Source: Eledone cirrhosa
Taxonomy: Eukaryota
Assembly: GCA_964016885.1 (NCBI GenBank)
Contig: OZ024757.1
Location: 5,270,001-5,334,000, forward strand
DNA length: 64,000 nt
Direction: 5' to 3'
This document shows positions 35,110-53,882 of this stretch, in pieces. The translations under genes and the position numbers were made by a program. The notes under the pieces were generated by a model, which saw nothing but the letters and a program-made list of their open reading frames with translations, was not told where the DNA came from and made no database searches. Within the stretch, counting starts at the first letter, position 1. Each line of letters opens with the position of its first letter.

Positions 35110-38100
35110 ATCATCATCATCATCATCATCAGGTTTAGCGTCCGTGTTCCACGCTTGCATGGGTTTGGACGGGGGTTTTCCCACTTGAGGCAAGAGTGGT
35201 TGTCTTGCTCGCATAGGACTGTCTGGCGGGTTTTCTACAGTTGGATGCCCTTCCTAACACCAACCACATTTACAGTGTGGGGCTGGGAGGTTTTTACCGT
35301 GTTGCCTACACGGCCACATTACAGCGTGGACTGTCTGGCTGGTTTTCTACAGCTGGATGCCCTTCCTAACACCAACCACATTTACAGTGTGGGGCTGGGA
35401 GGTTTTTACCGTGTTGCCTACACGGCCACATTTACAGCGTGGACTGTGTGTTTTTTGTCGTGACACCTACACGATCTCATTTGTTTCGGCCTGGATGTTG
35501 TGGGACCAACATAACTTTGCATTGAAAGGGGCGGTGTGGGTGGGGTGGAGGTGGTGGGACGGGGGTGTGTTTTGATAGAGGTGCCTACTGACTGTAGTAG
35601 GTTTTTACTTTGTATTTAGGTAAGGCGGGTCTTCTCTATTACTGAGTACCGCCAAAGGTCTCGGTCCAGTGACATTGTCTTGGAGAGGTGTAAGCGTGTG
35701 AGGTCGGAATTTATCAGCTCGTCCCATGTTTTTCTGGGTCTGCCTACTCCGTGGCTACCGTCTATCTTTATTGCCCTGCACTTTGTTATACAGCTGTCGT
35801 CTTTCATGCGCATCACGTGACCGTACCAACGTAGCCTTCTCTCGAGTAAACAACATCTGATCCCTCTTATTTCTAATTTTTTCCTTAGTTCGTTTATGCT
35901 TTGCCGTTCACGTATATTACTATTGCACATCCAGCGGAGCATGCAAGCTTCGTTCCTCTCTAGTCTGCGTATATCCTCTGCACACAATGCCCAGGTCTCA
36001 CTGCCATGCAGCATTGCTGTTCGTATGCAGGCATCGTATAACCTGCCTTTCATTTTTAGGGAGAACCCTCTAGCGGCTAATAGTGGTATAAGCTCTCTGA
36101 ACTTTTTCCATCCAGTTCTGACTCTAGCTACTGTACTTTCAGAGCACCCTCCCCCACTGCTGATTTTGTCACCCAGATAACGGAAGCTGTCCACTATTTC
36201 TATAGAACCCTCTGCGCAGTTGAAGGAGCTAGTATTTTGTGGGCACTTGCTGCTACTTATTGCACCAGAGCACCGGCCACATGTAAAATCTATGTTCTTA
36301 GTTAGCTTACCTGTGATCCCACTACATCTTTTATGCACCCATACTTTGCATTTGGGACATAAAATGGAGTTTCTACCTACGCCTTTCCTACACACTGAGC
36401 ATGGCCATTTCCCCGATGGGACCGCCGCCTTATTTTCTTTCCTACAAACTAGAACTTTAGTCTTAGCCAGGTTAATTTTAAGGCCTTTTGATTCTAGGCC
36501 GTGCTTCCACGTTTGGAATTTCTTCTCTAGTTCGGTCATTGATTCAGCTATGAGCGTTAGATCATCTGCGTATAGGAGTTCCCATGGGCAGCCGGTCTTG
36601 AACTCCTCTGTTATAGCCTGAAGGGCAATAATAAATAGTAGGGGGCTAAGTACAGAGCCCTGATGGACACCAACTTTTACGCTAAACTCTTCACTATATT
36701 CGTTGTTAATTCTAACCTTACTGACTGTTTCTTTATACATGGCTTGTATAGCTCTCACAAGCCATTCGTCAACACCTAGTTTTCTAAGAGACCACCAGAT
36801 AATGGAACGGGGGACTCTGTCGAAGGCTTTCTCCAAGTCGACAAAAGCTAAGTATAGGGGTTTACTTTTAGCTAGGTACTTCTCCTGTAGTTGTCGTACA
36901 ATGAAAAGAGCGTCTGTGGTACTTTTGCCTGACACAAACCCGAACTGCATTTCATCTAGATCAATTCTCTCTCTGATTAGTTGCGCTATTACTTTTTCCG
37001 TGACCTTCATGACCTGGTCGATTAATTTAATGCCTCTATAGTTACTCCTATCTAGGGCATCTCCTTTTCCCTTATAGCAGTTAACGATGATGCTGCTACG
37101 CCATTCCTTCGGAACAACCCCATTCTGTACGACTTGGTTAACTATCCGGGTGACCATGGTGTGTCCCACCGAACCAGATGCCTTCAGCATCTCAGCAACT
37201 ATTTCCGAAGGCCCAGCCGCCTTACCCGTCTTCATATCTTTGATTGCCTTACTTATTATACTACCTTCAACTAACACTGCTGGTCCCTCTATTGGATCGA
37301 TCTGGGGGAGACTGTCTTTCTCCCATTTGTTCTCCTCATTTAGAAGCCTTTCGTAGTGACACTTCCAAGCTACCTTCTTATCAGCGTCGGTGATGGCAAG
37401 TATGCCATCATCGTTAAGTACACACTTCTCCCCGACAATATCACGGTTTTCCTTGACACATTGCCTGGCAATCCTGAACACCTCACGTTTTTGGTCCTCA
37501 CGTTGTAGAACATGCTTGAACTTTCTTTCCTCTGCTTCCCTTCTTGCGAAGTACACTTGTCTCCTAGCTTCCCTCCTGGCCACTTGATAGTCTTCTCTAC
37601 TTCCCCCATCCCGCCATACTTTCCAAGCCTGCTTTTTGGCCTTAATTGACTCCTCCACCTTACTGTTCCACCACCATGTTACTCTCCTCCTACCTACAGG
37701 CCTGCTCCAGCCACAGACTTCGTCTGCCGCCGTCAGCAGGTTTGCTCTCAGGAATTCCCACTGTTCCTCTATATTATACGACTCTAATTGCTCTTCCTTA
37801 CTGTCGAAAGCGTCAAGTAATTTGCTTTGAAATTTATTTCTGGCTATGGGGTCCTTTAGCTTCCATATTTTTCTCCTGAGGATAGTCCTCTTTCGCTGTC
37901 TAGTACGTCTCGTCCTGACTATGAGGTCGCTAATTATCAGTCTATGTTGGGAGGTGAATTCTTCATGGGGGTGGGATTTAGTGTTAACAACAGACACTCT
38001 GTCACGTCTTCTGGTAAGGATATAATCTACCTGGCTTGTGTGTTCCCCCGATCTATAGGTGATCAAGTGATTGTCTCGTTTTTTGAAGTTAGTGTTACAG

Positions 38101-38940
38101 ATAGTTAAGTTATTTGCGTCGCAGAATTCCAGGATTCTGGAGCCTTCCTCATTTCTAGTACCGAACCCATAGCCTCCATGGATTCCGTCATAGCCGTCAC
38201 AATGTTGTCCAACGTGACCATTTAGGTCGCCTGCAATAACTATATAGTCACTGTCGGTTATTTGGGAGGTAGCGAGCATCAGTGTCTCGTAGAATCTGTC
38301 TTTTATAGCGCGGGGCTGTCCGGATTGGGGTGCGTACGCAGATATTACTGTCACCGTAGTTTTATTGAGGACAAGTCTTATTTTAATTATTCTGTCGTTC
38401 ACTCTATTTACGTCTATTATCTTATCTGCCCACTTTTCTGCTACCATGATTCCTACCCCACCCAACCCATTGTCATTTCCCACCCAGAAAAGCTTATAGC
38501 ATCGCTCTTTACCCACGATGAATCTAGCCGACCCTCCCCTCCACCTGGTCTCTTGAATACAACAAACATCGACCTCCTTACGTTCAAGCATTTCTACAAC
38601 CTCGTTAGAGCGACCCTTTAAGGTGCCTACATTCATGGTACCAACTCTGAAGTTTTGGATTGCGTTTGGAGGGTGGGCGCGGGGGGGGGATGGGGTTATG
38701 TTAGCCATCCTGGGCCGAAACAAGGAGGAGTGCTTGCATTCTCGTCCACGAGGTGAATTTGGCTTTATCTTTGGCATTGTCGCTGAGCGTCCACATTTTT
38801 CTCTCTTCAACTCTCCAGGATTCCGTAGTCCATCCATCATATCGAAAAGCAACCAGTTAAGCGATAGTATGGGCCTCTGACTTATGATTGGTCCACGTAA
38901 TAATGGTGGTACGTGGGGGCGGGAGGGAGGGCTGATGGGT
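35110..38940 (-). mobile_element. Apparently full-length RTE-clade LINE (5' boundary uncertain, may extend to about 41020)
   Basis: Single long ORF, about 500-bp 3'UTR with an internal duplication, and a (GAT)n tail at 35110-35130. Confidence 0.92.
35616..38840 (-). CDS. RTE LINE protein: AP endonuclease, reverse transcriptase and inserted Cys/His finger
   Basis: APE motifs GTMNVGTL, CIQETRW, SAYAPQ, AGDLNGH, VDYIL, SQHR; RT motifs QFGF, FVDLEKAFDRV, GVHQGSVLSPLLF, LYADD, FRYLG; C-terminal LRWYGHVMR/GRPRKTW. First ATG at 38840 (the track starts at a TTG at 38852). Confidence 0.95.
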   Translation of the reverse strand: MMDGLRNPGELKREKCGRSATMPKIKPNSPRGRECKHSSLFRPRMANITPSPPRAHPPNAIQNFRVGTMNVGTLKGRSNEVVEMLERKEVDVCCIQETRWRGGSARFIVGKERCYKLFWVGNDNGLGGVGIMVAEKWADKIIDVNRVNDRIIKIRLVLNKTTVTVISAYAPQSGQPRAIKDRFYETLMLATSQITDSDYIVIAGDLNGHVGQHCDGYDGIHGGYGFGTRNEEGSRILEFCDANNLTICNTNFKKRDNHLITYRSGEHTSQVDYILTRRRDRVSVVNTKSHPHEEFTSQHRLIISDLIVRTRRTRQRKRTILRRKIWKLKDPIARNKFQSKLLDAFDSKEEQLESYNIEEQWEFLRANLLTAADEVCGWSRPVGRRRVTWWWNSKVEESIKAKKQAWKVWRDGGSREDYQVARREARRQVYFARREAEERKFKHVLQREDQKREVFRIARQCVKENRDIVGEKCVLNDDGILAITDADKKVAWKCHYERLLNEENKWEKDSLPQIDPIEGPAVLVEGSIISKAIKDMKTGKAAGPSEIVAEMLKASGSVGHTMVTRIVNQVVQNGVVPKEWRSSIIVNCYKGKGDALDRSNYRGIKLIDQVMKVTEKVIAQLIRERIDLDEMQFGFVSGKSTTDALFIVRQLQEKYLAKSKPLYLAFVDLEKAFDRVPRSIIWWSLRKLGVDEWLVRAIQAMYKETVSKVRINNEYSEEFSVKVGVHQGSVLSPLLFIIALQAITEEFKTGCPWELLYADDLTLIAESMTELEKKFQTWKHGLESKGLKINLAKTKVLVCRKENKAAVPSGKWPCSVCRKGVGRNSILCPKCKVWVHKRCSGITGKLTKNIDFTCGRCSGAISSSKCPQNTSSFNCAEGSIEIVDSFRYLGDKISSGGGCSESTVARVRTGWKKFRELIPLLAARGFSLKMKGRLYDACIRTAMLHGSETWALCAEDIRRLERNEACMLRWMCNSNIRERQSINELRKKLEIRGIRCCLLERRLRWYGHVMRMKDDSCITKCRAIKIDGSHGVGRPRKTWDELINSDLTRLHLSKTMSLDRDLWRYSVIEKTRLT

Positions 38941-38944
38941 TGTT

Positions 38945-44600: not shown

Positions 44601-44629
44601 ATATCTTTAAATTATATATATATATATAT

Positions 44630-45036
44630 ACACAATTTTCTTTCCCCGACATCAGTCTTACACTGTCATATCTATTCTTACTTTACAATTGTGTCTACTA
44701 AGAGTTCCATTACAATCTGTAGTAGTAAAATTACTATTTCACCAGAACATCTGCTATCAGTCATTTATAGACAATATATATATTTTAGACCACATATCAA
44801 CCTAATATATATATATTTCCTATCAAATCTGTAGCTAAAGACATAAAGTCAGTCTCACTACTTCATGCTGACAAGATATCAATTTATGACTAAAGATGAA
44901 GATACACCAACGTTAATGTCGTGAAATAAAGCTGATAACATTGAAACTTCTAATTTGATAACAAAGAGATTATTTCTTTGGTTGTTTAGTAACAACTAAC
45001 AACACAACACATTGATTATATATGAAGGAGGTAAGT
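44630..45036 (+). other. Repeated upstream-exon module, copy 3 (donor GT at 45031); probable upstream exon of the ZNF gene
   Basis: Ends ATG AAG GAG|GTAAGT; it is the nearest module upstream of the acceptor at 51853. Confidence 0.6.
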
Positions 45037-45391
45037 TGACAAACATTTACTTAATGTCTATATTAATGTATATCTTTAAATAATATAATTATGTGAACCC
45101 TACAACGACCCAGTATTAATATATACAAGTGAAAATATATATAACAACATTAGAAAAATATATTTCTTCCTCCACTTTTATATATAGAAAAAACACTTCC
45201 AAACTGAAATGTTGATGTGATATTTTTCAATCATCAGATTCCACTGTTACATGTGATATAAAATATATTGTTATCATGACTGTCTTTATTATTTAATTAC
45301 CTCCGTCTATATTTCAACCACTGGAACAACCTCAAACAAGAAACAGTTGTCACCCACAGTCTACATTTTAATGTAAGATATCGAAATAAAG

Positions 45392-46011
45392 GGCACTGTC
45401 GTGGTATTAGCTGTCAGAAAGAAGGTGACATCAGTCGTCAACCTTCTCAATCCTTTATTTCCGTATCACTGTTCCGTTTATTTACGTTTATGATTTTATT
45501 TATGGGGACCAAATAACCCCGTAATTTTCGAGAGAAACGATAATATACAATCTTATTTAACATGTGTATTAAAAACTACACTAGCTGTTACAATTGTAAT
45601 TAACGTGTAAGAACTTAAATGAAAATATAGGTGGCCCTTAAAAGGGCCGGTGTTGAAACAAGTCATGGTTATCAAATTAAGAAAACAAATTTAAGTTCAA
45701 CATCGACCCTTTTAAGGGCCACCTATATTTTCATTTAAGTTCTTACACATTAATTACAATTGTAACAGCTAGTGTAGTTTTTAATGCACATGTTAAATAA
45801 GATTGTATATTATCGTTTCTCTCGAAAATTACGGGGTTATTTGGTCCCCATATATTTTTTAATAAGTGTATCTCATCGTAAACGTATCTCTTAGAAAATC
45901 CTAAACATAAATAAAGGGAATAGTGATACGGAAATAAAGGATTGAGAAGGTTGACGAATGACGTCACCTTCTTCTACTTTCACTTCTGACAGCTAATACC
46001 ATGACACTGCC
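45392..46011. mobile_element. Fold-back MULE-like element with long TIRs
   Basis: Arms 45392-45658 and 45696-46011 are inverted; GG...CC termini; imperfect 9-bp TSD gaaataaag / gaaatatat. Confidence 0.75.
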
Positions 46012-46065
46012 GAAATATATGTTATGAGTGTATATAGATAGATGTATGTTGTGTGTGTATATATA

Positions 46066-46650
46066 CAGTAATCCCCCGCTATATCGCGGTTCACTTTTCG
46101 CGGTCCCGTTACATCGCGGATATGTCTTTGGAACGTATCTAATTTCCTATCGCGGTAATCCTCGCCAAGTCGCGGATTATTCGTTAGAACATGTCTAGTT
46201 TCTTATCGCGGTACGTCTGAATAAAAAGTGTTTAAAATTTAAACTTATTAAATAAGTTTCAATGTTATTAAAGTGTATATCGTAAGGAAGGGACATCTTA
46301 AGGCTTTAATTATAAACAAATGTTTTTATTTTTCATTCCATTACTGTTTTACTGATTGTGTTTTGCTCTAATCTACTACAAACCCTTCATAGATTGACGG
46401 GAGATGTGCAGTGTATTACCAAGTGGCTACCGTAGCTGGCAATAGTCCTCATTGGTAACTAGTGGTATGATGGTTGGTGGTAGTTTCTATACGATCGTTA
46501 CTGGCTATTTTTGGTGTTTAAATACAAAAGTGTGTTTTAATGAGTTTATATGTACTTAAAGCATGTATGAGAGGTATTTTAAGGCTTAAACTATGGAAAC
46601 AACGGTTGTCTTTATGGTCTCTCTATATCACGGTTGGTTCTGGAACGTAT
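46066..46650 (+). mobile_element. Tigger/pogo-like non-autonomous DNA transposon, right end truncated by a SINE
   Basis: ta-CAGTAATCCCCCGCTATATCGCGGTTCAC start; atcgcgg subrepeats; ctggaacgta near the end. Confidence 0.6.
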
Positions 46651-46651
46651 C

Positions 46652-46840
46652 CTGGCTTAGTGGTTAGAGCATTGGGCTTACAATTAAAAGGTGGTGAGTT
46701 CGTTTCTCGGACAGGGTGTTGTGTTGTGTCCTTGAGCAAGACACTTTATTTCACGTTGCTCCAGTTTACTCAGCTGTAGAAATGAGTTGTGATGTCACTA
46801 GTGCCAAGCTGTATCGGCCTTAACCTTTCTCTTGGACATA
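46652..46840 (+). mobile_element. SINE family B with its 3' tail
   Basis: A and B boxes, core segment, and tail gttgtgatgtcactagtgccaagctgtatcggcc. Confidence 0.8.
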
Positions 46841-47228
46841 TATATAGTGTATATATACTCTATAATATATATAGTGTATATATATACTGTATAATATATA
46901 TAGTGTATATATACTGTATAATATATATATAGTGTATATATACAGTATAATATATATAGTGTATATATACTGTATAATATATATATAGTGTATATATACT
47001 GTATAATATATATAGTGTATATATACTGTATAATATATATAGTGTATATATACTGTATAATATATATAGTGTATATATACTGTATAATATATATAGTGTA
47101 TATATACTGTATAATATATATAGTGTATATATACTGTATAATATATATAGTGTATATATTCTGTATAATATATATACTGTATAATATATATAGTGTATAT
47201 ATACTGTATAATATATATAGTATATATA
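46841..47228. repeat. AT-rich minisatellite, about 27-bp unit
   Basis: tagtgtatatatactgtataatatata. Confidence 0.9.
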
Positions 47229-47334
47229 TGTTGTGATGTTACTAGTCCCAAGCTGTATCGGCCATAGCCTTTCTCTTGGACATATATATCTTGTATAGAT
47301 ACTGTATAATATATATAGTGTATATATATGTATA

Positions 47335-49060
47335 TCATCATCACTGTTTTACGTCCCTTCTTCCACGGTAGTATGGGTTAGACAGGTTGTCCTGTTGTGG
47401 GCAGTGCCAGGTGGGGTGACCTTGTCTTGCTTAGATGGGAACCGATTTTGGCTTGATTTCTACAGCTGAATGCCCTTCCTAACACCAACCTCACAGTGAG
47501 TGATGGGTGCTTTTTTGTTGTGACACCTCCACGACCACTTTACAGTGGGAGGGGTTGGGGGCATATTGTCGATGTGCTTCGGCTTGTACCCAGGGGCTAC
47601 AACACAACCTCCTCTGCTGCACACAGCATTTGATTCCTCTTATGCTCAGTCTCTCTCTCAATTTGTTAATGCTTTGCCGTTCACGTATATTACTATTACA
47701 CATCCATCGGAGCATGCAAGCTTCGTTTCTTTCTAATCTACGCAAGTCTTCTACAAACAGCGCCCAGGTCTCACTACCATGTAACATTGCTGTTCATATG
47801 CACGCATGATACAGTCTGCCTTTCATTTTGAGGGAAAAGCCTTTTGCAGCTAGCAGTGGCAGTAGCTCCCTGAACTTCTTCAATCCCGTTGTTACCCTGG
47901 TTACTGTACTTTCAGAACACCCATCTCCGTTGCTTATTCGGTCACCTAGGTAGCAAAAGCTGTCTATTGTTTCTACAGAGCTCTCCCAGAGTTTGGTGGT
48001 GCTTGTTTCTTTAGTTCTGCCATAGATTCAGCTATAAGTGTAAGATCATCCACATATAGGAATTCCTATGGGCATCAGGTCTTAAACTCCTCTGTTATAG
48101 CCTGCAATACTATTATAAACAGGAGAAGGCTAAGAACAGAGCCCTGGTAGACACCGACTTGTATGTTAAATTCCTCGCTATAGTAATTGTTAAGCCTAAC
48201 TTTACTAACATGTCCCTATACATGGCTTGTACAGCTTTCACAAGCCACTAATCTACTGCTAGTTTTCTAAGAGCCCACCAGATTATAGCACAGAGCACTC
48301 TGTTGAAGACTTTTTCCATATCGACAAGAGCCAGGTAGAGCGGCTTGCTTTTAGCTAGGTACTTTACCTGTAACTGCCTCACAAGGAAGATAGCATCAGT
48401 GGTGTTTTTTCCTGGCCCAAGCCCAAACTGCATCTCACTTAGTTTTACCCAGTCCCTGATCAACTGTGCTATGACATTTTCCATTACTTTCATGACCTGG
48501 TCCATCAGCTTTATACATCTATAGTTTATTCTATCTAGTGCATCTCCTTTACCCTTGTAGCAGTTGACGATGATGCTGCTGCACCAATCCTTTGGTATGA
48601 CACCCTATAGTATTACCTGGTTAACAATATGTGTGGTTATTACTTTATCTACCCATTTGTCAGCTAATAGTATATCTACACCACCCATCCCATTGTCATT
48701 TCCCACCCAGAAAAATTTATAGCACTAACTTTTGCCTACAAGGACTCTAGCGAACTCTCCTCTCTACCTAGTCTCTTGCACACAGCATACGTCAATATCC
48801 TTTCACTCTAGCATGTCTATAATTTCTCCTTCCCTTCCTTTCATTGTGCTTATGTTGATGCTGCCAACTCAGAGTTTTGGACATTTGCCATCATTTGTGG
48901 GAGAGGGTGAATTTTTGCAGGGGAGTGTGTATGCTTCCTGTCTCTGAATTAAAGCTTTGCATGGGAGCTTGGTAACTCGCGGATTCATATTCATTTATTT
49001 ATTCGGGGTTGTTCCATTTATCCTTCGCTCCTTCATACGTAACAGTAATCAAGAATTCTT
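47335..49060 (-). mobile_element. Multiply deleted RTE copy retaining the APE N-terminus
   Basis: LHGSETWAL and MDQVMKV...QFGL fragments; the FWVGNDNG-like region near 48690. Confidence 0.85.
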
Positions 49061-49069
49061 TGGTGCAGG

Positions 49070-50240
49070 GCTAGAAGGACAGTAGTAGTAGTGGCAGAGT
49101 TTGTTGGGGCTGGTAAGGTCTAGAAGGCCAGTAGTAGTAATGGCAGAGTTTGTTGGGGCTGGTAAGGTCTAGAAGGACAGTAGTAGTAATAGCAGAGTTT
49201 GTTGGGCTGGTAAGGGTTAGAAGGACAGTAGTAGTAATGGCAGAGTTTGTTTGGGCTGGTAAGGTCTAGGAGGCCAGTAGTAGTAATGGCAGCATTTGTT
49301 GGGGTTGGTAAAGGCTAGAAGGACAGTAGTAATAATGGCAGAGTTTGTTGGGGCTGGTAAGGTCTAGAAGGCCAGTAGTAGTAATGGCAGAGTTTGTTGG
49401 GGCTGGTAAGGTCTAGAAGGCCAGTAGTAGTAATGGCAGAGTTTGTTGGGGCTGGTAAGGGTTAGAAGGACAGTAGTAGTAATGGCAGAGTTTGTTGGGG
49501 CTGGTAAGGGTTAGAAGGACAGTAGTAGTAATGGCAGAGTTTGTTGGGGCTGGTAAGGTCTAGAAGGACAGTAGTAGTAATGGCAGAGTTTGTTGGGGCT
49601 GGTAAGGGCTAGAAGGACAGTAGTAGTAATGGCAGTGTTTGTTAGGGCTGGTAAGGGCTAGAAGGACAGTAGTAGTAATGGCAGAGTTTCTTGGGGCTGG
49701 TAAGGCCTAGAAGGACAGTAGTAGTAATGGCAGAGTTTGTTGGGGCTGGTAAGGGCTAGAAGGACAGTAGTAGTAATGGGAGAGTTTGTTTGGGCTGGTA
49801 AGGGCTAGAAGGACAATAGTAGTAATGACAGTTTCTTGGGGCTGGTAAGGCCTAGAAGGACAGTAGTAGTAATGGCAGAGTTTGTTGGGGCTAGTAAGGG
49901 CTAGAAGGTCAGTAGTAGTAATGGCAGAGTTTGTTGGGGCTAGTAAGGGCTAGAAGGACAGTCGTAGTAATGACAGAGTTTGTTGGGGCTGGTAAGGGCT
50001 AGAAGGACAGTAGTAGTAATGGCAGAGTTTGTTGGGGCTGGTAAGGTCTAGAAGGACAGTAGTAGTAATGGCAGAGTTTGTTTGGGCTGGTAAGGTCTAG
50101 AAGGACAGTAGTAGTAATGGCAGAGTTTGTTGGGGTTGGTAAGGGCTAGAAGGACAGTAGTAGTAATGGCAGAGTTTGTTGGGGCTGGTAAGGGCTAGAA
50201 GGACAGTAGTAGTAATGGCAGAGTTTGTTGGGGTTGGTAA
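49070..50240. repeat. 49-bp minisatellite, about 24 copies
   Basis: agaaggacagtagtagtaatggcagagtttgttggggctggtaagggct. Confidence 0.95.
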
Positions 50241-50673
50241 TGGGTAAGGACATGTTGCTGAGGTTTGATTGGTCAAATAGCCAGTGGTGGGGAGTGGGAA
50301 ATTGTGAGATAGGTAGCCATCATGACATATATCATCACAGGAGATTCGAGGGAAATAAGCAGATATAAGTAGACATATTACACAAGGCAAATATGCAAGA
50401 ATTTCGAAGATGGACACTTAGCTTTGGAAACACCGAAATGAATGAGTGAGAGAAAGGGGAGGTAATGGCGGGGGTTCGGGATAAGTTTGTAGAGAAAGAC
50501 ACAATGTCCAACATGGTTTATATCAAAAACAAGGTCGAAGTATATACATTGTGGAAACAAGTGAATGATAATAATAAGAACGTAAATAGAACATTTTGAA
50601 ACTGGGGAAGAGAGATAGCTGTAGAATAGAAATAATCTATGGATGTCTGGGATATAAGTATACATAAATATAT

Positions 50674-50858
50674 GTTGTGATGTCACTGGTGCCAAGCTGT
50701 GTCAGCCATTGCCTTTCCCTTGGACAACATATATGGTGTATATATATATATATATAGTGTATATATATGTTGTGATGTCACTGGTGCCAAGCTGTGTCAG
50801 CCATTGCCTTTCCCTTGGACAACATATATGGTGTATGATAGATATTGTACACAGTGTA

Positions 50859-50897
<39 letters not shown>

Positions 50898-50996
50898 TAT
50901 ATATATGTTGTGATGTCACTGGTGCCAAGCTGTATCAGCCATTACATTTCCCTTGGACAACATATATAGTGTATGATAGATATTGTACACAGTGTA

Positions 50997-51028
<32 letters not shown>

Positions 51029-51240
51029 GTGTATATATATGTTGTGATGTCACTGGTGCCAAGCTGTGTCAGGCATTGCCTTTCCCTTGGACATATATAT
51101 AGTGTATATATACTGTATAATATATATAGTGTATATATATGTTGTGATGTCACAAGTGCCAAGCTGTATCGGCCATAGCCTTTCTCTTGGACAACATACA
51201 ACATATATAGGGTATTATATATACTGTACACAATGTATAT
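50674..51240 (+). repeat. Tandem array derived from the SINE-B tail plus (TA)n
   Basis: gttgtgatgtcactggtgccaagctg at 50674, 50769, 50907, 51041 and 51141. Confidence 0.85.
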
Positions 51241-51244
51241 ATAC

Positions 51245-51750
51245 ATCATCATCGTTTAACGTCCATCTTCCACGCTAGCATGGGTTTGGACGGGAGTTTT
51301 GCCACTTGAGGCAAGAATGGTTGTCTTGCTCGCATAGGACTGTCTGGTGGGTTTTCTACGGCTGGATGCCCTTCCTAACACCAACCACATTTACAGTGTG
51401 GACTGGGAGGTTTTTACCGTGTTACCTACACGACCACATTACAGCGTGGACTGTGTGTTTTTTTTTTTGTCGTGACACCTACACGACCTAATTTGTTACA
51501 GACTGGATGTTGTGGTACCAACATAATTTCACATTTAAGGGGGTGGTGTGGATGGGGTGGGGGTGTATTTTGTTAGAGGTGCCTACTGACTGTTGCTTTC
51601 AGCAGGTTCACTTTCAAGGATTGCCACTGTTCCTCTATATTGCATGTCTCTAATTGATCTTCCTTATTGTCAAAGGCATCAAGTAATAGGCTTTTAAATT
51701 TTTCACTGGCTATGGGGTCCTTTAACTTCCATAATCTTCTACTCAAGGTA
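51245..51750 (-). mobile_element. RTE 3'UTR fused to an internal ORF fragment
   Basis: Matches about 35120-35595 (without its internal duplication), then jumps to sequence like 14570-14730. Confidence 0.8.
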
Positions 51751-51853
51751 GTCTACAATTTACCAATATAGAAATATAACATTTCCACTGTTAAATCTAT
51801 CTCTGCTTCTAAAGTATTCTGTATTATCTCATACTGTTTCTTTCTTATTTCAG

Positions 51854-53882
<2,029 letters not shown>

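Follow-up and report, generated by a model that had tools for sequence, protein, structure and literature searches.

A Merlin fold-back element with the 3′ end of a histone H4 gene in its arms, and an H4-derived cassette, probably a passenger, behind the transposase gene of its relatives

Introduction

The stretch of the Eledone cirrhosa genome analysed here, 64,000 nt of contig OZ024757.1 (positions 5,270,001 to 5,334,000) and referred to as the window, includes a fold-back element with a sequence resembling the 3′ stem-loop of histone mRNAs in each of its arms. Replication-dependent histone mRNAs are, according to PMC4604434, the only cellular mRNAs that lack a poly(A) tail, and finding their 3′ end in a mobile element raises the questions of where the histone DNA came from and whether the cell uses it. 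If the hairpin is used, a non-histone message would be finished like a histone message. With an entire histone 3′ signal placed behind a transposase gene, nature provides a test case for the use of this signal outside histone genes, and for the possibility that a cut-and-paste element times itself to replication via RNA processing. Even if the histone DNA is a passenger, its capture history is well resolved: the locus that donated the DNA, sisters without it, intermediate forms and an empty site are all present in one genome.

Structure of the fold-back element

The features of the element are listed in Table 1. A first-pass annotation of the window had described a 620-bp near-palindrome and this was borne out, the element aligning over its full length as two arms with two indels. 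The arms at 45472–45657 and 45696–45881 are 91 % complementary, a second complementary pair is formed by 45419–45497 and 45895–45973, and the spacer between the two arms is 42 bp. The imperfect 9-bp target duplication that had been proposed can be drawn with two mismatches; however, the empty site found in L190 (L numbers denote other loci in this genome) fits an 8-bp duplication with one mismatch and an extra G equally well.

Table 1. Features of the fold-back element and the unit in which it lies (positions in the window)
Feature	Position	Strand	Evidence
Non-autonomous Merlin fold-back element (MITE-like), without an ORF	45392..46011	.	ends 93–96 % identical to those of transposase-bearing L137, L184
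Target duplication, left 8-bp copy, extra G at 45391	45383..45390	+	empty site in L190
Target duplication, right copy, one mismatch	46012..46019	+	empty site in L190
Left Merlin terminal repeat and subterminal blocks, GG start	45392..45469	+	blastn to L184, L137, L118; pattern search
Left arm, H4-derived part: stem-loop and deleted, collinear H4 3′ flank blocks	45502..45655	-	comparison with H4 locus L036
First downstream box AAGT, left arm, +17 to +20	45613..45616	-	sequence, box statistics
Histone stem-loop, intact, native ACACC 5′ flank	45633..45648	-	Rfam Histone3, 40.5 bits, E 5e-10
Central spacer, native Merlin subterminal repeat	45656..45697	.	identity 41/42 with L184, 33/34 with histone-free L118
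Right arm, H4-derived part	45698..45897	+	comparison with H4 locus L036
Histone stem-loop, second G-C pair broken	45705..45720	+	Rfam Histone3, 29.7 bits, below cut-off
First downstream box AAGT, right arm	45737..45740	+	sequence, box statistics
Right Merlin terminal repeat and subterminal blocks	45923..46011	-	blastn
Larger duplicated unit carrying the element and, in part of the copies, also a C2H2 zinc-finger exon (52512–53882)	44610..53882	+

Family assignment

The first-pass annotation had placed the element in a MULE-like family. The features of its relatives identify it instead as a member of the Merlin (IS1595-type) family. The ends of the terminal inverted repeats begin with 5′-GG. 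Target duplications of Merlin elements are 8 or 9 bp; of 37 end pairs, 15 have a perfect 8-bp duplication and 22 have one with no more than a single mismatch. Most of the misses are accounted for by nested ends, recombinants and repeats of one insertion, all of which are among the 37. The transposase of related copies matches PF12762 (DDE_Tnp_IS1595; E 2-7e-19) on two intact ORFs of 300–302 aa (L129 and L132), and this was the only Pfam domain found in either protein, neither of which includes a MULE transposase domain. The closest protein relatives of the transposase are from Octopus bimaculoides and O. sinensis, sharing 63–85 % identity for the six best, and a metagenome scan returned no relatives of the element.

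Members of the Mutator/MULE family generate a 9-bp target duplication. The long arms and the 9-bp duplication that is possible at the window site would be in keeping with a MULE, yet none of the 37 end pairs has a 9-bp duplication within one mismatch, so that this is not a trait of the family, and the transposase domain is PF12762. The long arms could likewise be taken to mean that the hairpin is a chance by-product of the palindrome, but 43 of the 44 nt around it are identical to a real H4 gene, and there are further collinear blocks beyond these. The chance that either reading is correct appears negligible, and both are refuted by these comparisons.

Histone 3′ flanks and the signal in the window copy

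The sequences behind the stem-loop were surveyed in 28 non-redundant histone 3′ flanks from this genome, representing all four core classes. Of these, 22 contain an (A/T)AGT box between +12 and +24 (mean 2.3, maximum 8 in 1000 shuffles) and 24 a GAT(A/T)TGC-like box between +30 and +52 (shuffles: mean 1.3, maximum 6), the latter count being 20 when a single, looser pattern was used (shuffles: mean 5.2, maximum 15), though these counts are optimistic because both patterns were written after viewing the same flanks. Boxes near +17 and near +35 to +42 are seen in the histone loci L031, L036, L111–L116 and L230–L241. The second box lies farther out than the usual downstream element and we found no description of it in the literature; its conservation in octopus-type histone 3′ flanks is a further outcome of this case. 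A search of the genome for U7 snRNA returned no match over the cut-off. The best candidate, at 29.7 bits (L186:1490–1570), is U7-like, with an Sm-like word and a 3′ hairpin, and is without clear complementarity to the histone boxes. In one H4 gene in the genome the hairpin is 114 nt from the stop codon.

Both 16-nt hairpins of the window element were found where the first-pass annotation had located them, each facing outward. Only part of the expectation that they would be recognised by the Rfam Histone3 model (RF00032, gathering cut-off 34 bits) held, as the minus-arm hairpin passes and the plus-arm hairpin fails. The defect in the plus arm is a G-to-A change at stem position 2, found in that arm only in the window copy and L013 among the 30 best loci, while the hairpins are perfect in both arms of L002 and most of the other best loci. 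Hence, the low score is due to a mutation private to the window copy and does not represent the state of the family. The second G-C pair and U3 of the loop are intact in the minus arm and in the coding copies described below; in the plus arm the second G-C pair is broken. Rfam scans also returned miRNA matches, all far below their cut-offs, that reflect the fold-back.

No HDE had been visible in the first pass. This is correct for the second box, which is deleted in the window copy, but the AAGT box is present in both arms. When RNA reading through the element was folded, the pair probability of the hairpin was 0.0 on either strand. Because the arms would pair with each other and so mask the hairpin, the second box is deleted and the hairpin on the strand of the zinc-finger exon lacks the second G-C pair, the window copy is unlikely to be a working processing signal as had been envisaged.

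Origin of the histone DNA

The Rfam Histone3 hits in the genome include true H4 genes, and one of these, L036, matches the arms outward from the hairpin in collinear blocks. This block-by-block match, which covers the stem-loop and its flank, identifies the inner arms as DNA captured from the 3′ end of an H4 gene and upholds the suggestion that a DNA transposon had captured a histone 3′ end. The same flank is seen in a second, fused form of Merlin, in which the first third of the transposase is joined to L036-type H4 flank just behind the hairpin; the consensus of this form aligns with the L036 flank over approximately 570 bp, with 27 differences in 512 columns. The idea of a whole histone cargo fared less well, as the only histone coding sequence is the last eight H4 codons in one relative, the long-armed L034, which keeps RTLYGFGG, the stop codon and a 3′ UTR that, among the nine H4 genes compared, most resembles that of L036.

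The direction of transfer, from H4 to Merlin, is indicated by the fact that other H4 genes have the same first approximately 50 nt behind the hairpin, that neither a Merlin end nor a transposase was found near L036 and that H4-free, full-length Merlin copies exist. The repeat that receives the cassette elsewhere is uninterrupted in L118. Thus, the H4 fragment lies inside the ends of the element, is absent from sister elements and is present at the host locus, as a captured host fragment should be.

We infer that a histone-free Merlin inserted at or near the 3′ end of an H4 gene and took up approximately 700 bp through gap repair or an aberrant excision. A template switch from one end to the other would then have placed the H4 piece in both arms. 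Three offspring could have arisen by later deletions: the long-armed non-coding form seen in the window; a second form, in which the start of the transposase is joined directly to the H4 flank and the hairpin is missing; and a third, coding form whose H4 piece was trimmed to approximately 62 bp. Merlin pieces lie in several histone loci, and two of these illustrate how an insertion behind a histone gene, once rearranged, can bring Merlin and histone DNA together. One Merlin lies 17 nt behind the stop codon of a broken H2A gene, and next to it a fragment of transposase has become fused to the hairpin of that gene; another Merlin piece lies approximately 60 nt behind an H3 hairpin.

In this broken H2A gene (L256:1564–2700), the Merlin, which lies in the 3′ UTR, brings a sense H4 cassette, making a second, independent junction of Merlin and histone DNA. 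Specific targeting of histone genes was considered but is not borne out by the counts. Merlin pieces were found in 4 of the first 16 histone windows; among held-out histone-fold windows they were found in 2 of 20, and among tubulin or actin windows of 10 kb in 1 of 20, the copy on the tubulin side being already known when the controls were chosen. There were none in 107 kb around other Merlin families. With so few cases, we claim no preference for histone loci relative to other clustered genes. In L294, two Merlin pieces lie within 10 kb of a broken tubulin gene.

Copy number and the duplicated zinc-finger unit

In the 3.0-Gb genome, a 35-nt word made up of hairpin and 3′ flank has 511 exact matches (reversed control, 0), compared with some 60 histone-fold matches, and copies of this kind will be mis-annotated as histone signals. 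Contigs of two of the four runs (X1 and X4) contain the elements. Among the 30 best loci, which include the window, the left flank of the window is shared by 26 and both flanks by 25, and the other four represent a second insertion. In five of ten flank-sharing siblings (10 kb each), a C2H2 array on the same strand lies 5.9–8.3 kb downstream, collinear with the window. The shared flanks and this collinearity make most of the near-identical copies duplications of a zinc-finger unit rather than new jumps. After its insertion, the window copy would therefore have multiplied mainly via duplication of the surrounding unit, of which L190 retains the empty site. Of the ZNF gene in whose intron the first pass had presumed the element to lie, the window holds a same-strand C2H2 exon 6.5 kb downstream of the element, and no 5′ exon was located.

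Several other features of this region were noted. In L009 and L183 each flank is from a different insertion, as ectopic recombination in zinc-finger clusters would give. A 49-bp tandem array (49067–50252) and a TA-rich array of 27–29-bp repeats (46780–47330) both lie within the duplicated unit, in which the C2H2 finger array (52512–53882, plus strand) is a single exon. A repeat at 46066–46260 starts after TA, includes several TCGCGG words and may be a pogo/Tigger-type end. On the minus strand at 35616–38942 there is an open frame of 1108 aa, with what we take to be the endonuclease and reverse-transcriptase features of an RTE-type LINE.

Transposase-bearing relatives and their H4 cassette

A midpoint-rooted tree was built using 54 ORFs with more than 700 aligned nt (shorter ones were dropped) from 70 loci, nearly all of them picked by a transposase match. 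Forty-four of the 54 have the hairpin at one or other end and all of these fall on one side of a branch with 100/100 support, while the remaining ten, which include the most divergent copy, have it at neither end. A sense-strand hairpin is found within 700 nt of the end of the ORF in 38 of the 44, usually 137 nt after the stop codon, and those of the six exceptions that were examined are truncated, interrupted or inverted in the 3′ region. The prediction that transposase-coding relatives would have the hairpin on the sense strand behind the ORF was therefore confirmed. The hairpin is also found, antisense, in the 5′ arm of 36 of the 44.

The H4 piece in these copies is a cassette of approximately 62 bp that opens with the first stem base and closes shortly after a GATATGC word. 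As its boundaries enclose the stem-loop and both downstream boxes, it comprises the whole conserved histone 3′ signal and little else. Thirty-six of the 44 copies have the whole cassette on the sense side, but only five have it on the antisense side, where 36 have just the hairpin, though such retention states represent few independent events because they were inherited from few master elements. It has also survived several rebuilds of the 3′ region (L137, L229, L212, L211, L133 and L138 types). Relative to H4, the hairpin of the coding copies includes a single change, at position 4 of the loop, where H2B and some H4 genes have the same letter. The A/C-rich 5′ flank seen in the window element has been replaced by AATTT, an extra U-A pair is predicted at the base of the stem (P 0.75–0.79), and in L132 the 3′ hairpin scores 34.0 bits, at the Histone3 cut-off, and the 5′ hairpin 37.0 bits. 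In the two cassette-bearing copies checked, AATAAA lies 66 nt upstream of the hairpin, where two histone-free copies have AACATA.

The transposase has been under purifying selection (dN/dS between lineage consensuses 0.22 and 0.24), which indicates that the cassette rode in active lineages. Single copies decay almost neutrally (terminal pN/pS 0.81–0.95 in the cassette clade); only two of the 54 ORFs are intact and the youngest copies differ from their consensus by approximately 1.1 %. No substitution is visible in the cassette between sub-lineages in which synonymous sites have moved by 0.149, but neighbouring non-coding DNA is about equally conserved (7 differences in 245), and within copies the hairpin and the rest of the cassette decay alike (1.3 % and 1.4 %). 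Hence, in both the sub-lineage comparison and per-copy decay, substitution rates give no sign of selection on the cassette above the non-coding control, and the stem-loop is not conserved beyond the neighbouring DNA.

Between successive sub-lineages (L132, L137, L118 and relatives) the synonymous difference is 0.15–0.17, whereas copy ages differ by approximately 1 % and alignable non-coding DNA by approximately 3 %, a discrepancy for which strong non-coding constraint, mosaic ORFs or re-invasion are options. At the left end of the youngest coding subfamily (L132:940–1090), two pieces of terminal repeat meet head to head and are joined to further shared DNA, and the right end is a hybrid. In one cassette-bearing element with a perfect 8-bp duplication (L184:1130–3484), long inverted repeats enclose part of a second Merlin that is more distant.

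Is the cassette used?

The reading we favour, though with some reserve, is that the window element is a Merlin fold-back with an H4 3′ end and that the cassette behind the transposase of its relatives is probably a passenger, which the transposase mRNA may bypass through ordinary polyadenylation. The AATAAA gained upstream, the AATTT 5′ flank with the extra U-A pair, the 137 nt to the stop codon, the absence of excess conservation and the antisense hairpin in the 5′ arm all point this way, the weight of the 5′ flank resting on background rules of SLBP binding and the Rfam score of 34.0. On the other side are the exact boundaries of the cassette, the asymmetry between its sense and antisense sides and its survival through the 3′ rebuilds. 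According to bioRxiv 10.64898/2026.10.14.759114, regulated decay depends critically on a hairpin placed 25–60 nt behind the stop codon. The longer distance here would bear on regulated decay more than on cleavage.

It is possible, though rather doubtful, that the coding clade uses the cassette, with transcription from a promoter in the left arm and, for at least some of the transcripts, cleavage behind the hairpin directed by SLBP and U7. The supply of transposase would then be coupled to S phase or to oocytes, which are rich in SLBP, and these are times at which cut-and-paste elements increase in number. The exact retention of the stem-loop and both boxes on the sense strand behind the ORF would be explained, and CCAAT-, E-box- and TATA-like words 50–110 nt before the ATG in the left arm may be promoter signals. 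RNA that starts inside the left arm is predicted to form the hairpin with a probability of about 1.0, an SLBP gene is present in the genome, and the H4 gene with 114 nt between stop codon and hairpin has a similarly long distance. The second G-C pair and loop U3, which are diagnostic of the histone stem-loop in the same bioRxiv text, are intact. The cassette clade also outnumbers its sisters by 44 to 10 among the recovered ORFs, but it is the youngest clade (median 1.1 % from consensus compared with 2.8 %) and its youth alone would lead to larger recovery. In the fullest version, Merlin would have taken over the histone mRNA pathway, the H4 stem-loop ending a transposase message that is cut via SLBP and U7 rather than polyadenylated and is made in S phase or stored in the oocyte, with hundreds of copies scattering histone-type 3′ ends; from the sequences at hand this seems unlikely.

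Alternatively, the cassette may have been kept for a role in DNA or double-stranded RNA and not for processing, either as part of the subterminal repeats used by the transposase or in repair, with the palindrome fixing the breakpoints of rearrangements, or because read-through fold-back RNA feeds silencing or editing. The outward-facing hairpins at both ends, the many partial copies that break inside the stem or loop, a loop change that lengthens the palindrome and the long duplex predicted for read-through RNA (about -412 kcal/mol) are consistent with this. However, histone-free sisters and the fused form transposed without the cassette, leaving perfect 8-bp duplications (L118, L146, L096 and L098), and a role of this kind appears quite improbable.

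Comparison with known systems

Pack-MULEs and long-armed fold-back MITEs are non-autonomous elements with arms that have grown by uptake of host DNA. The element described here differs from them in being a Merlin rather than a Mutator element, and the captured piece also persists in a coding lineage. Capture of host DNA by cut-and-paste elements is already known. A literature search, which did not extend to Repbase, Dfam or the supplements of PMC8101967 (where octopus Merlin families may be listed), found no report of a transposon bearing a histone stem-loop.

The GG ends, 8-bp duplications, DDE_Tnp_IS1595 transposase of approximately 300 aa and subterminal tandem repeats agree with the Merlin elements described in the main text of PMC8101967, and the arms fall within the 24–462 bp range known for that family. 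Unlike those elements, the ones examined here have histone-gene host DNA in both ends, and the word "histone" is absent from that main text. In PMC11417402, U7 snRNA is described as repressing LTR12 through HDE-like motifs, and this too is a mobile element with a histone-processing motif that can be read by the histone machinery. However, LTR12 elements are retroviral LTRs without a stem-loop, and it is transcription that is repressed there, not 3′ end formation.

A parallel for the captured DNA is in Dothideomycete fungi, where hAT elements captured histone H3 sequence that was inactivated by RIP, as set out in PMC6710886. There, as here, a cut-and-paste transposon took histone-gene DNA and amplified it to hundreds of copies, though the fungal elements took coding sequence, whereas the piece found here behind a transposase ORF is a 3′ processing signal and comes from a replication-dependent H4 gene of an animal. 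With the histone mRNA 3′ end itself (RF00032, and as described in bioRxiv 10.64898/2026.10.14.759114 and PMC4604434), the cassette shares, by descent from H4, the 16-nt hairpin, the second G-C pair, U3 of the loop, and the 3′ flank with its boxes; it differs in belonging to a non-histone unit and, in the coding copies, in the replaced 5′ flank, the distance to the stop codon and the poly(A) signal upstream.
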